DNA of 55,541 nucleotides from an uncultured Gammaproteobacteria bacterium (GTDB lineage: Bacteria > Patescibacteriota > Patescibacteriia > Magasanikbacterales > UBA922). Of this stretch, positions 4 to 33,903 are shown one piece after another. The notes under the pieces are model-generated. The model ran no database searches and had not been told where the DNA came from. It saw nothing but the letters and a program-made list of their open reading frames with translations. How positions within the stretch are numbered: position 1 is the first letter of the stretch; each line of letters starts with the position of its first letter. The stretch lies in contig CAZFUL010000003.1 of the NCBI GenBank assembly GCA_964522435.1, forward strand, positions 1 to 55,541, read 5' to 3'. The position numbers and the translations under genes were made by a program.

Positions 4-32
4 TTGACAAAACAACCTAAGACCAGTAGTAT
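4..32 (+). promoter_or_regulatory. sigma70-type promoter for tRNA-Arg
   Basis: TTGACA (4-9), 17-nt spacer, TAGTAT (27-32), about 18 nt before the tRNA. Confidence 0.75.
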
Positions 33-20256: not shown

Positions 20257-21375
20257 TTATTGCCGTATAGGCATGACAATATACGTAAAATCATCCGAGG
20301 ACTTTGCTTTAAAAATACACGGCGAATCCGCACTATTCATTTTACATTCTAATATATCGTCTTCAATATGCTGTACGCCTTCTAACACATAGCGATAATT
20401 GAGTAACACACTGCCGCCCTCTCCTAGGGCCTCTGCATCAATTTCTGAGGCGTGTTCTCCTGTTTGTGCGCTGGTAGATGAAATACGACAGTGTTTTTTT
20501 TGTGCATCAATAGAAAGAGAAATCGCATTTACTCCTGCGTGACTAAACAAACTCGCGGCTTTAACACTATTAATGAACGCATCTTTAGAAATTTCTGCCG
20601 TGGTTTGAAATTGCGTTGGAATAATTTGTCGATAATCTGGGTAGTTGCCATCAATTAATCGAGACATCATATCAATGTCGTCTGTACGCAAGCTGATTTG
20701 CCCCTCTCCCAAAGAAAGGGTCACTGTTTTTGTTTCAGAGGCAATAACCCCAAGCAGGCGAACAAACTCGGCAACAGTTCGTGCGGGAATAATACATTGT
20801 TTTTCTTCTTGCATATGAGCAAGCATAATTTTACTTTCGGACAAACGGTACGAATCTGTTGCAGCAAACACGACCTCTTTTGTTTCTTTTGCAAAAAAAG
20901 AACAAAAAATCCCAGAGAGCTCTGGACGAATTTCATTTTTTGCCGCTGCAAACATGACATTGCTAAAGGCTTCCTTTAGTGCCTGCGTTTCAATGACCAC
21001 ATCAAATTGACGCGTCATTGAGGGAATCACCGGATATTCATCAGGACCGTCTCCTTTAATTTTTGTACTACTGCCGCTACTATGAATAATAACCTGTGCT
21101 CCTTCTAAAGAAAGCGTAATCTGTTCATCGCGTAATAGCGTGACATAATCCAATAACGTTTTGGCAGGAACAGTAAATCCACCAGGTTGTTCTACCTTTG
21201 CTCGAACTTGTGCGGTCACGGCTAATTCTAAATTCGTACTTAATAAAGAAACACCACTTTCTTGTGCTCGTATATATATATGAGAAAGAATAGGAAGATT
21301 GCTTGGCTTCATCGCAATCCCACTTGCAACATGTAGTCCTCGTAATAAGTTATCCCGTGTACAAGTAAATTTCAT
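20257..21375 (-). CDS. dnaN: DNA polymerase III beta sliding clamp
   Basis: STNLELAV, ATDSYRL, SRLIDGNYPDYRQIIP, YIVMPIR; downstream of dnaA. Confidence 0.96.
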   Translation of the reverse strand: MKFTCTRDNLLRGLHVASGIAMKPSNLPILSHIYIRAQESGVSLLSTNLELAVTAQVRAKVEQPGGFTVPAKTLLDYVTLLRDEQITLSLEGAQVIIHSSGSSTKIKGDGPDEYPVIPSMTRQFDVVIETQALKEAFSNVMFAAAKNEIRPELSGIFCSFFAKETKEVVFAATDSYRLSESKIMLAHMQEEKQCIIPARTVAEFVRLLGVIASETKTVTLSLGEGQISLRTDDIDMMSRLIDGNYPDYRQIIPTQFQTTAEISKDAFINSVKAASLFSHAGVNAISLSIDAQKKHCRISSTSAQTGEHASEIDAEALGEGGSVLLNYRYVLEGVQHIEDDILECKMNSADSPCIFKAKSSDDFTYIVMPIRQ

Positions 21376-21384
21376 AATTAACAA

Positions 21385-23105: not shown

Positions 23106-23229
23106 ACGAGGATGCTGGTTATGCGAGGGTAAAAAATGAGAAGAAGGGAAAATTCCTTCCCATTTTAACACATTTGAGCAGAATACATAGGGCACAAATA
23201 TGGCTGTGTAAAGGCTATAGTGGGTAATG

Positions 23230-23258
23230 TGGGGATAACCTGTGGATTGTGGGGATAA
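23230..23258. promoter_or_regulatory. DnaA-box cluster upstream of dnaA
   Basis: TGGGGATAA (23230-38), TGTGGATTG (23241-49), TGGGGATAA (23250-58). Confidence 0.7.
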
Positions 23259-23272
23259 CCCCTCTGGGGCGC

Positions 23273-23301
23273 TTGACAAATACGAGGCGCTCACTTATAA
23301 T
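23273..23301 (+). promoter_or_regulatory. consensus sigma70 promoter of rpmH
   Basis: TTGACA, 17 nt, TATAAT. Confidence 0.9.
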
Positions 23302-23337
23302 GAGCTCACTTTTGTACCGAAATTCATTATACGCAAT

Positions 23338-31479: not shown

Positions 31480-31962
31480 TTATGAAGAAATATCTGTTGC
31501 TTTTTTTCGATGATGTATGACAAACAGAAGGGTCCCCGTAATAATCATGAGGTCTGCAATATTAATAATGGAGGTAAATAATCGAATGTAATCAATAGTG
31601 ACAGAAAATAAAAATCGATCAATATAATTAGAAAGGGTGCCTAAGGAAAGAAGAGACAGTGCCCACCATTCTATAGGAGTTGAAGGGATTTTTTTATGAG
31701 AAAAAAAGAATAAGAGCAGGGTAAGAATAATAGGCGTGATAATTAAAACAAACCAATTGGGGATGCCTATGCCGAAGGCAATCCCAGGGTTATTGAATAG
31801 TTCCCATCCAATATAGGGAGAAATACTGTACCAATAAAAATCTGGGTTGGTTCTTGCCAGGTATTTGCAGAGTTGATCTAAAAGAAAAAACACCCCGCTT
31901 GTGGTAGCGATCCAAAAAGCGGGGCGAGAAAAGAATGGAGTAACGGAAGGATTAGGCTTCAT
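31480..31962 (-). CDS. lspA: lipoprotein signal peptidase II
   Basis: LDQLCK, NPGIAFG, SNYIDR, TIDYI, NIAD; four TM. Confidence 0.85.
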   Translation of the reverse strand: MKPNPSVTPFFSRPAFWIATTSGVFFLLDQLCKYLARTNPDFYWYSISPYIGWELFNNPGIAFGIGIPNWFVLIITPIILTLLLFFFSHKKIPSTPIEWWALSLLSLGTLSNYIDRFLFSVTIDYIRLFTSIINIADLMIITGTLLFVIHHRKKATDISS

Positions 31963-32359
31963 TGGTCAGTACTTTTTTTGCTTGAACAGAAGAACTTGAT
32001 GTGGGTCTTGCTAAAAGACGTTTCTTTTCTATGGGTTGTCCCGTATATTTACAAATACCATAGGTATTCGTATCAATGCGTTTAAGGGCAGAAATAACAT
32101 CGCGGAGTTTATTTTCTAAGGTAACCTCTAATGTTTTGTTAACACTAAAGTCGGCTACTTCACGGGCATTATCATCTTCCTCTGTGCCGTAGTTTGGAAA
32201 ATCAGCATTAAAGTTGCTTGCATCATCTGTACTACGATGGGCAAATTGAGACAGTTCTTTTTCAATTTTTTGTTTTTCATCTAAAAGAAGACCTTTTATT
32301 TCTTCAATAAAGTCTGCCTCAAACACGTCGCTGGTTTTTAATTCGTTCATTTGTGTCAT
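31952..32359 (-). CDS. DksA/TraR-like RNA polymerase-binding protein with degenerate zinc finger
   Basis: Coiled coil with EEDDNA tip, L.DV..ALKRID..TYGICKYTGQPIEKKRLLARP. Confidence 0.85.
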   Translation of the reverse strand: MTQMNELKTSDVFEADFIEEIKGLLLDEKQKIEKELSQFAHRSTDDASNFNADFPNYGTEEDDNAREVADFSVNKTLEVTLENKLRDVISALKRIDTNTYGICKYTGQPIEKKRLLARPTSSSSVQAKKVLTNEA

Positions 32360-32583
32360 ACTCCTTATGATCAATAGATAGAATGCTTTGCCAGTATACA
32401 AGAACTGACAAGAAAAAACAAGAAATTATGAGGGCATGTATGTGTATAAAAACGTAACTATTCCGCTACCGCACACAGGTAAAGAAAGCAGTCGCAGCGT
32501 AAGATGCATCTTGGCACACTACGCGACTTGCTTTCGTGCTTGTATTCTGAGAAGGGATAGTTTTAAATAAAAATATATTTTTT

Positions 32584-32638
32584 AAAATAAAAAAGGACCC
32601 TGCATTCCCCATAGTATTGTTTTACGGGAAGAGGGTCC
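32584..32638 (-). terminator. terminator of an unannotated minus-strand transcript
   Basis: GGACCCT..TTCCC / GGGAA..AGGGTCC stem followed by TTTTTTATTTT on the minus strand. Confidence 0.72.
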
Positions 32639-33075
32639 GAAAACGTCTTAGGGTGGCGTTACACTCATATCGATTGGCTATGATTAGTCAACCTATATGA
32701 GTGAAACGTCAACGACCTAAAAGACATCTATAGACGCCCTTCTACCACCTGGCCGGGTGAGGGTTCGCGGCGCGTTAAACAACCAAAGGTCGATAACGCA
32801 GTATTTGGGTGCGAACTTCCAACCACAGGATTCTCCTCTTATATTTTATATTTGTATAGGTATTTGTCAGAAAACGCTGAACAAGCGTGTTGCTGAAGGT
32901 GTCTGTTTGAAGAAGACAGGGGAAGATAGAGAGAAAGATCGCACTGCAGAAAGTAAAACAGGGCAATCCTGCGGCATAAGGCCGGAGTAGAAGAGGGTGA
33001 GCACCACACAAAGCAATATGTTTTGTGCAGTACATCCCTAAGTCTTTTGTGAAAGAACAGAACAACGTTACTATG
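32595..33075 (-). ncRNA. candidate structured non-coding or small-ORF transcript (about 480 nt)
   Basis: Bounded by a promoter (33081-33109) and terminator, long hairpins, no recognisable protein. Confidence 0.45.
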
Positions 33076-33080
33076 TATAT

Positions 33081-33109
33081 ACTATAGCATATTTTACAAA
33101 ACTTGTCAA
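33081..33109 (-). promoter_or_regulatory. sigma70 promoter (minus strand)
   Basis: TTGACA (33109-33104), 17 nt, TGc-TATAGT (33086-33081). Confidence 0.75.
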
Positions 33110-33203
33110 CAGGCCATTTGTTGGCTAATTTTAGCAAATTTTATGCAAAAACACGGTAAAAAATTGTCAAAACAGGTGTATACAAACACAAAAATAGGCG
33201 ACT

Positions 33204-33244
33204 TTATCCCCAGTTTGCTAAAGTTTTCCCCATAGTTATCCACA
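33204..33244 (+). promoter_or_regulatory. three co-oriented DnaA boxes outside oriC
   Basis: TTATCCCCA (33204-12), TTTTCCCCA (33224-32), TTATCCACA (33236-44). Confidence 0.65.
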
Positions 33245-33430
33245 ATGTATAGAATAGTGTATACAAAAGTACGTTTTTTTTGTGCATATCTTAATAAAAT
33301 AGACAGATATGTTGCTATACCATATGTTTTTACTGCAACAGTTTGTTACAAAAAACAGAAAAGTTGCTTGTTTTTTGAGCAAGGTATTTGTAAATAAGCG
33401 AAAATATTTATTTGAATACACTGGTGTATA

Positions 33431-33460
33431 CAAAAAATCACCTTTGGAGGTGAATTTTTG
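33431..33460. terminator. terminator after DoxX gene
   Basis: CAAAAAATCACCT-TTGG-AGGTGAATTTTTG. Confidence 0.68.
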
Positions 33461-33480
33461 ATAAACAATGTAGGTTGATA

Positions 33481-33903
33481 TTATTTTTTCTTAGTTGGGC
33501 AGATACATTCATCTTTCCCTGCCATAACGCGATATTTTCCTGCACCTGTTCCTGCAAGGGCAAGAGTGCTACCAAGCAGTGCGATTGGTAGAAAGGCTTG
33601 TTTAAGGGGACCCGGTACATGGGCAACAAGAAGAGCCACGACCATGATAATTGCCAAGATGGAAGCAATGCTGCGGGTATAGAGGCCCACAAGAATAGCA
33701 ATACCACCCAAAAATTCAACAATAGCGACTAAATATGCCCAAAAAGCGGCAACAGGGAACCCAAGATTGGTAAACATGCCAATCACCATATCCATGCTGC
33801 TGAGCTTTGACCAGCCACTGTAGATAAAGATAAGTGCAACACTTACGCGAAGGAACAAAAGTCCCCAGTCTTTTGCGTTATCAGAACAACACATCATTTT
33901 CAT
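33481..33903 (-). CDS. DoxX family membrane protein
   Basis: LLFLRVSVALIFIYSGWSKL, VEFLGGIAILVGLYTR, G.GKY. Confidence 0.9.
   Translation of the reverse strand: MKMMCCSDNAKDWGLLFLRVSVALIFIYSGWSKLSSMDMVIGMFTNLGFPVAAFWAYLVAIVEFLGGIAILVGLYTRSIASILAIIMVVALLVAHVPGPLKQAFLPIALLGSTLALAGTGAGKYRVMAGKDECICPTKKK

Follow-up and report, generated by a model that had tools for sequence, protein, structure and literature searches.

Bacteria encode several large structured non-coding RNAs (ncRNAs), such as OLE, GOLLD, ROOL, raiA and HEARO, whose functions have not been deduced from sequence and whose families are in Rfam. Large structured RNAs found earlier have turned out to include ribozymes, cofactors of RNA-guided enzymes and large assemblies. 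Other kinds of transcript come close in single respects: the 6S and Ms1 RNAs, the CrcZ/CrcY-type RNAs, which are A-rich protein sponges, and the transcription units that flank replication origins, such as gidA and mioC at E. coli oriC and the unit of the strong hemE promoter (Ps) in the Caulobacter origin. Here we describe an RNA of about 490 nt encoded on the minus strand of contig CAZFUL010000003.1 (assembly GCA_964522435.1; 55,541 nt, analysed in full and called the window below), from a genome of Candidatus Magasanikbacteria in the phylum Patescibacteria. The locus is very probably a conserved structured ncRNA gene. On balance we also favour the fuller statement that it is an independently transcribed minus-strand gene whose product is a stable, structured ncRNA acting in trans.

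The RNA resembles OLE, GOLLD, ROOL, raiA and HEARO in that it is several hundred nucleotides long, contains many covarying and long-range helices, has its own promoter and terminator, lacks an open reading frame (ORF) and is restricted to a lineage. It differs from them in matching no Rfam model, in its host phylum, in its constant place beside DnaA boxes and usually a DksA-like gene, and in an A-rich linker set in a three-way junction. Like 6S and Ms1, it is a structured RNA without an ORF, it has a promoter of the type that drives abundant RNAs, and the product of its neighbour gene is related to a polymerase-binding factor; unlike these RNAs, which are about half as long, it forms no rod with a central bubble, leaves its ends unpaired and matches no model. 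CrcZ and CrcY share with it a size of about 400 nt and a conserved A-rich single-stranded tract, but it has a single such tract where they have several, neither Hfq nor CsrA was found in its genome, and the rest of the molecule is elaborately folded. As in gidA/mioC and hemE Ps, a strong promoter lies beside DnaA boxes and an AT-rich region and reads away from them; in contrast to those units, the product is a conserved folded RNA rather than a protein message, and the region is a candidate origin.

An earlier note, made from the letters of the window alone, had placed a promoter and a terminator on the minus strand around a long imperfect hairpin, and all three elements are present. The unit spans 32584-33074 (minus strand, ~490 nt), with its start inferred at about 7 nt past the -10 hexamer and its end at the end of the U-run. 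The promoter (33109-33081) reads TTGACA-17 nt-TATAGT with a TG before the -10 hexamer and matches the consensus at 11 of 12 positions. A regular expression, TTGAC[AT]-16..18-TAxxxT, matches at the corresponding position in 42 of the 59 loci upstream of dksA in relatives. The region as such is not enriched in promoter-like sites (4, versus 3.4 ± 1.6 in shuffles). The terminator hairpin, P7, together with its U-run occupies 32584-32638: the two-tiered, G+C-rich arms GGACCCUCUUCCC...GGGGAAUGCAGGGUCC (32638-32595; outer stem 7 bp, inner stem 8 bp) are followed by UUUUUUAUUUU at 32594-32584. The 55 nt preceding the U-run have a folding energy of -19.8 kcal/mol. A simple terminator scan missed P7 because its loop is too large.

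The minus strand of the whole unit folds at -153.8 kcal/mol, compared with -117.4 ± 6.1 in dinucleotide shuffles (z -5.99), and the plus strand reaches z -4.48. The GC content is 0.45-0.49 within the unit versus 0.27-0.34 in the upstream spacer. The genome (~1.0 Mb in 11 contigs, 97% complete) holds a single copy of the RNA according to searches with the two covariance models described below. These results confirm the observation of an independent minus-strand unit with a strong fold.

BLASTN of the unit against 60 related genomes returned just promoter-sized or A/T-rich matches. Homology was reached through synteny, nhmmer and covariance models, using the 1.5 kb upstream of the dksA-like gene in 58 relatives. 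Most of these regions are ORF-poor, with a consensus promoter 450-600 nt ahead of the gene, and nhmmer linked the unit to three of them (E 1e-9, 6e-8 and 1e-4). Two covariance models were built, R1 for the core (153 positions) and R2 for the 3' domain (161 positions), which score 61.3 bits at 32707-32867 and 55.8 bits at 32590-32747 of the unit, respectively. At E<0.004, R1 detects the RNA in 33 of 59 loci, 15 of them outside the seed and all at the expected place upstream of the dksA-like gene. R2 detects it in 32 loci at E<1e-5 (7 non-seed); G014 and G025 are gained with this model, which also matches weakly in two other families of the order. Between them, the models locate the RNA in 34 of the 35 relatives fetched from the home family, Candidatus Magasanikbacteria; G009 is the sole such relative lacking it, and G021 stands outside this count.

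Searching 150 other genomes of the class with R1 added three loci from three families (L108, L109 and L110), which we judged real members since they share the CCCUCUUCUCUACU and GGUAGAGGRG motifs, the promoter, the terminator and the DnaA boxes. Six further R1 matches (L111-L116) were judged spurious: they involve the A-rich part alone and lie inside or beside coding sequence. We rate the RNA as an apparently undescribed family, unrelated as far as can be detected to any known kind, whose members occur in Candidatus Magasanikbacteria and in certain other lineages of this Patescibacteria class.

From the 5' end, the RNA opens with a leader motif, GUUCUUUCACAAAAG (33044-33058; family consensus AGUUCnUUnAAAA in alignment A10), and hairpin P1 (33001-33033), which has 12 bp in the predicted fold of this genome. 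The 5' strand of the long-range helix P2, CUCUUCUACU (32986-32995), pairs with GGUAGAAGGG (32746-32737), the most conserved motif of the family in the homologue alignments. Across the family the two motifs read CCYCUUUUACU and GGUAGARGGG, the second ~150-260 nt downstream of the first. Inside P2, the 5' strand of P3 (32965-32975, including CAGGAUU) pairs with 32832-32822, which begins with AAUCCUG right after an AGAGGAG. A variable region (32868-32964) separates the P3 5' strand from an A-rich single-stranded linker (32838-32867); from the P2 5' motif to the start of the core, homologues measure 21-131 nt. The linker has the consensus AAAACAAAAACAAAAGUAAAAAA in many relatives, shows near-invariant A columns in alignments A1 and A4 and is unpaired in the predicted folds; in relatives the tract consists of seven A-R-N triplets in a run. 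The P4 domain (32763-32816) is a long irregular hairpin made of P4b (32816-32811/32768-32763), P4a (32800-32794/32777-32771) and an apical stem. Together, P2, P3 and P4 make up a three-way junction that encloses the variable insert and the conserved A-rich linker.

The 3' domain comprises P5, P6 and P7. In relatives, the P5 region (32710-32736 here) forms a CCGUCC/GGACGG hairpin. Its assignment in this genome is uncertain: the P5 strand is predicted instead to close P6, through an extra helix of 32729-32716 with 32652-32641. P6 (32656-32709; fold and A7 count) is the core of the long hairpin that the earlier note had described. The same note had seen a GTCT arm able to pair with either AAGAC or AGACG; these letters are part of the closing helix predicted for this genome alone, and we found no conserved switch. 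P7 has an internal loop, and in most relatives its apical loop (CCCAG) forms a pseudoknot with an upstream CUGGG, which was not found in this genome. Here and in three relatives (the L039, L060 and L072 group), the terminator loop forms an extra stem of the UACA/UGUA type that replaces the pseudoknot, and this is a sub-family difference. The free minimum free energy (MFE) structure of the RNA from this genome already holds P1, P2, P3, P4, P6 and P7, and a fold constrained by P2, P3 and P4b alone lies 2.2 kcal/mol above it.

Covariation was counted on four alignments: A3 (33 sequences) and A7 (32 sequences), fitted to R1 and R2, respectively, and A4 (35 sequences) and A10 (22 sequences), which are plain MAFFT alignments unfitted to structure. 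RNAalifold on the MAFFT alignment A1 recovered P4a alone, and the structures were therefore annotated by hand from one reference row. For each set of helices, the share of paired cells and a covariation score were compared with slid controls and with 500 column shuffles. P1 on A10 is 79.7% paired (slid controls 36-49%) with a score of 0.502 (0.11-0.19), and P2/P3 on A4 is 85.7% paired (42-53%) with a score of 0.343 (0.11-0.17). On the fitted alignments, P4/P5 on A3 reaches 73.5% (34-41%) and 0.539 (0.07-0.12), and P5/P6/P7 with the pseudoknot on A7 reaches 79.4% (33-46%) and 0.427 (0.07-0.16). In all four counts, none of the 500 shuffles attains the observed value of paired cells, both-side-changed cells or covariation score. 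The weaker measures (pairs with a both-side change, and further pair types on A4) are reached by up to 19 of 500 shuffles.

In individual helices, changes on both sides occur in 11 of 13 pairs of P1, 8 of 10 pairs of P2 (87.7% paired), all 5 pairs of P3a (91%), all 8 pairs of P4a (88.5%) and all 12 pairs of P6 (86.4%). P5 is 82.6% paired on A3 and 73.6% on A7; the outer and inner stems of P7 are 75% and 87.5% paired on A7. The P7-loop pseudoknot, which is absent from the R2 model, is 73% paired on A7, with 4 of its 5 pairs covarying. For P3, MAFFT misplaced the 5' strand of this genome in A4, and it is the remaining sequences of that alignment that carry the family count. RNAduplex energies of P2 against shuffled 3' strands were uninformative, since the purine strand pairs with the pyrimidine-rich region even when shuffled, and duplexfold chose a neighbouring register in this genome; covariation was used instead. 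Covariation in the alignments supports every major helix (P1-P7), including two long-range helices, and the pseudoknot.

The P2 pairs also identify the strand. One of them is U-G in 34 of 35 sequences of A4, and others are U-G in 14, 13 and 10 of 35. Read from the plus strand, the same positions would hold A-C mismatches, and this, together with the promoter and the U-run, fixes the minus strand. The earlier note had preferred the plus strand for its hairpin on account of two G-U pairs, and had thought of an antisense or convergent RNA. At the family level the P2 pairs do not uphold that preference, and an antisense or plus-strand RNA finds no support, the U-G pairs, the promoter and the U-run all being of the minus strand. 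Our promoter scan found no plus-strand promoter inside the unit and none facing it except sites upstream of 33300.

We then examined the coding potential. The 32-aa ORF and the Cys-rich 86-aa ORF considered in the earlier note do exist, and a 77-aa ORF is also present on the plus strand. A tblastn search of the 35 other family members returned no counterpart of any of the three (the best hit, at E 0.013, is on the opposite strand), and none has a Pfam match; without a conserved peptide or domain a coding role for the first two is not upheld. The longest sense-strand ORFs of the homologues range from 18 to 99 codons and differ in position. The AGAGGAG that had been read as a Shine-Dalgarno sequence runs into AAUCCUG (32832-32826), the P3 3' strand, which pairs with CAGGAUU (32971-32965) and covaries. 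No ORF is conserved among the 36 family members, which leaves the proposed type I toxin-antitoxin pair without a conserved toxin. A small protein or a type I toxin-antitoxin system is thus not supported as the identity of the unit, given the unconserved ORFs and a supposed Shine-Dalgarno sequence that runs into a covarying helix.

Known RNA families were searched with 4227 Rfam models, at the gathering threshold over the window and at E<=10 over the region. In agreement with the earlier note, which had seen no RNase P, transfer-messenger RNA (tmRNA) or signal recognition particle (SRP) signature and had asked about 6S, the window gave no match to any of them. ARAGORN reports four tRNAs and no tmRNA in the window; RNase P RNA is encoded on contig C4 (155 bits) and tmRNA on contig C6 (108.6 bits) of the same genome. 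No Rfam match falls inside the RNA in 20 homologous loci. Among the families that might have been expected, no riboswitch, T-box or other leader model matches the window or these 20 loci, and ROOL, GOLLD, OLE, raiA and HEARO match neither the region in this genome nor the 20 loci. A full-text literature search, mostly at the level of listings, returned no such structured RNA in Patescibacteria. The suggestion of a novel ncRNA is thus supported by the lack of an Rfam match, the homologues in 34 of 35 genomes of the home family and the covarying helices.

6S RNA and SRP RNA deserve separate mention. The 6S model (RF00013) has no match in the window, in the rest of the genome or in the 20 homologous loci, a silence that means little as the model finds a match in only 5 of 14 control genomes. 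The consensus fold is itself multi-branched (P1-P7), with a 5' leader and a 3' terminator that do not pair with each other, and is not the 6S-like rod with a central bubble. The SRP RNA models (RF00169, RF01854) match neither the window nor any of the 41 genomes searched (this genome and 40 relatives). In this genome, the M domain of Ffh (PF02978) and the SRP54-type GTPase domain of Ffh and FtsY (PF00448) were not found, and no ORF carries the SRP-GTPase motifs; PF00448 gives 3 weak cases in 81 genomes of the class and, at E<=1e-10, none in 121 genomes of the phylum. SRP RNA was set aside as an identity because its partners Ffh and FtsY were not found. One report describes two SRP subunits as absent in many bacteria of the Candidate Phyla Radiation (CPR) (PMC8080830). 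SRP loss is thus already known, and the genomes sampled here suggest that it is very broad.

Three RNA-library (metatranscriptome) runs from three studies, mapped on 32300-33500, each contain one contig that lies wholly within the unit. In the search of sequencing runs these three, and DNA runs (X2-X13 among them), had small word shares. The contigs, which carry neither strand nor ends, cover 32864-33014 (X14, identical to the genome), 32735-32958 (X16) and 32772-32972 (X20). X16 and X20 share their differences, three substitutions and one deletion (32801, 32803, 32841 and 32860). All four positions lie within the A-rich linker or within the internal loop that separates P4b from P4a. The flanks (32300-32734 and 33015-33500) are uncovered in the three runs, which is not a sign of silence. 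These contigs hint at transcription of the unit.

Upstream of the promoter lies an AT-rich non-coding region of ~340 bp (33124-33480). It contains three DnaA-box-like 9-mers: a perfect one at 33244-33236, one with one mismatch at 33212-33204 and one with two mismatches at 33232-33224. In all 31 members with a promoter detected by the regular expression, including the three from other families of the class, a 9-mer of the TGTGG[AG]TAA type is present 60-170 nt upstream of the promoter, often as two copies 32 nt apart; the estimated chance expectation is ~0.004 per locus. The gene dnaA is 10 kb from the RNA here; in this genome and in all five relatives compared it is on the same contig, at a distance of 7-37 kb. 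With dnaA and the GC-skew minimum of contig C3 nearby, the RNA locus is origin-proximal, and 33124-33480 may be an origin, a DnaA-box cluster, a DnaA-regulated promoter or an operator region. The same region carries palindrome-like repeats beginning with TTTGTATACAC (33267-33246, 33186-33175 and 33434-33423) and a palindrome, GCTAAAATTAGC (33135-33124), that abuts the -35 hexamer. Palindromes of the TGTATACA type are candidate operator-like repeats. In the relative L054 a perfect 20-bp palindrome, TGTATACACTAGTGTATACA, is present, and the layout of the upstream region is conserved in relatives.

We then propose a model for how the RNA could work. As a product of its own gene, it would act in trans as a folded RNA or an RNA-protein particle, and serve neither as a message nor as an antisense regulator. 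Contacts are likely to be made by the junction and by the A-rich linker held in it, which is the most conserved single-stranded element. Synthesis of the RNA would probably be tied to DnaA and the origin region, by way of the DnaA boxes and the palindromic operator-like repeats just ahead of the promoter, and to a palindrome-binding factor. A classical Hfq or CsrA sponge is unlikely because domains of neither protein were found in the genome, and we regard that idea as weakened.

Several points weigh against the trans-acting ncRNA. We infer the particle from the architecture and from the exclusion of other readings, and Hfq and CsrA, the obvious partners of an A-rich sponge, were not found in the genome. 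The 5' and 3' ends were placed from sequence; the RNA-library contigs are short, cover 32735-33014 only and come from a type of library that can contain DNA. P5 and the pseudoknot cannot be placed confidently in this genome, and helices 1-3 of A3 (P4, P4b) are only 20-62% paired. Fitting A3 and A7 to the model structures inflates pairing, and the shuffle controls overstate significance because the sequences are related. The distribution has gaps as well. R2 matches none of the 150 other genomes of the class, so that the 3' domain either diverges faster or the model is too narrow; in 24 loci from other families of the order R1 has no match and R2 has 2 weak ones; and R1 has no match in the genome of L089, the closest DksA relative.

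Much of bacterial diversity belongs to the Patescibacteria, or CPR, whose genomes measure ~1 Mb and whose ncRNAs have hardly been explored. Here ~0.05% of a small genome and one of its best promoters are spent on a 490-nt RNA with seven covarying helices, an expenditure which, given that DnaA boxes lie alongside in all 31 members with a detected promoter, speaks for an important role. Large structured RNAs are seldom newly found, and R1, R2 and about 36 sequences provide an alignable target for biochemistry and cryo-electron microscopy. The RNA may also offer a handle on the coordination of replication and transcription in ultra-small symbiotic bacteria.

Other readings were weighed against a trans-acting RNA. 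The first is suggested by the gene downstream, which encodes a DksA/TraR-like protein of 135 aa (31955-32359, minus strand) and is followed by lspA and a ComM/Mg-chelatase-like gene. The Pfam match of its product to zf-dskA_traR (E 6.9e-4) is under the curated cut-off, and among the genes that follow it the matches to Peptidase_A8 and Mg_chelatase are clear; a DksA/TraR-like gene is present in 60 of the 61 genomes searched, this one included. The RNA could be a cis-acting leader or attenuator of this dksA-like-lspA operon, with P7 and the pseudoknot as an expression platform that senses a ligand or protein and sets read-through. By R1, 33 of 59 loci do have the RNA directly upstream of the gene and in the same orientation; the terminator is 7-333 nt from the gene start, and the terminator-loop pseudoknot covaries, a feature of some expression platforms. 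But a strict regular expression finds promoter-like sites in the interval from P7 to the dksA-like gene in at least 13 loci, and by eye they are also present in L039, L054 and L041, where the message would have almost no leader; the promoter scan found no good one in this genome. The RNA and the gene also occur apart: L109 has the RNA with no dksA-like gene within 1.5 kb. The closest DksA-like protein (74% identity) is that of L089, in which another gene, and no RNA, precedes the dksA-like gene. With seven helices in 350-490 nt, the RNA is, to our knowledge, far larger than known riboswitches, and no Rfam riboswitch or T-box model matches it. We therefore consider a cis-acting leader unlikely. 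In L054 and L041, the ATG of the dksA-like gene is located ~6-7 nt past a TATACT or TATAAT hexamer, which suggests leaderless dksA messages.

The same neighbour gene permits two ideas about RNA polymerase. One is a regulator like 6S or Ms1 that binds the polymerase, possibly with a DksA-like secondary-channel factor, and substitutes for the undetected 6S RNA. The absence of an RF00013 match in this genome, the strong housekeeping-type promoter and the conservation of the RNA beside a DksA/TraR-like gene would fit. The multi-branched fold with unpaired ends would not; moreover, 21 members give not even a weak 6S match, which counts for little with a model that finds a match in only 5 of 14 control genomes, and the gene neighbourhood is the sole positive link. 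Such a regulator is quite improbable. The other idea is a DnaA-controlled, origin-proximal housekeeping RNA of unrelated fold, which would couple replication initiation to global transcription. It would be made when DnaA occupies the boxes, and its target would be either RNA polymerase, approached jointly with the DksA-like factor, or DnaA itself. We hold this to be quite unlikely; if true, it would mean a new kind of cell-cycle riboregulator, in a lineage already without SRP, Hfq and CsrA.

A further reading puts the act of transcription first. Strong transcription away from the DnaA-box and AT-rich region could aid opening of an origin by negative supercoiling or an R-loop, or the RNA could act on DnaA. 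The DnaA boxes upstream of the promoter in every one of the 31 members, the adjoining 340-bp AT-rich non-coding region and the proximity of dnaA in six of six genomes are consistent with this, and on contig C3 the cumulative GC skew passes through a broad minimum at 18-28 kb, which ends ~5 kb short of the locus. That minimum is nearer to dnaA, however, and is too broad to tell whether the origin is the DnaA-box region at 33.2 kb. The dnaA-rpmH spacer has three DnaA-box-like sites of its own, no stretch of 400 bp contains three or more boxes at <=1 mismatch, and transcription alone leaves covarying helices over ~400 nt unexplained. We judge an origin-associated transcription unit of this kind decidedly unlikely.

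A small-protein gene or a type I toxin-antitoxin pair with the 32-aa or Cys-rich 86-aa ORF as its toxin is extremely improbable: the ORFs exist and an AGAGGAG precedes the shorter one, but no peptide is conserved in the 35 homologues, whose longest ORFs vary in length and position, and in the promoter scan the only plus-strand promoters facing the unit are upstream of 33300.

The surroundings of the RNA gene provide some further observations. In the divergent spacer between dnaA (minus strand) and rpmH (plus strand), at 23210-23330, the DnaA-box-like sites TGGGGATAA, CTGTGGATT and TGGGGATAA occur within 40 nt and are followed by a consensus TTGACA-17-TATAAT promoter for rpmH. A gene that appears to be dnaN (ORF 20260-21384) lies downstream of dnaA. 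This gene order is that of a classical origin, and it is found 10 kb from the RNA. Two relatives carry a tRNA gene on the upstream side of the DnaA-box and RNA region, a few hundred bases away (L040:2810-2891 and L057:377-461). The spacer between the terminator and the dksA-like gene (32402-32583) is 229 nt in this genome versus typically 50-170 nt in relatives; it contains an imperfect hairpin at ~32485-32535 that can form on either strand and a weak plus-strand terminator-like site at 32522-32538.

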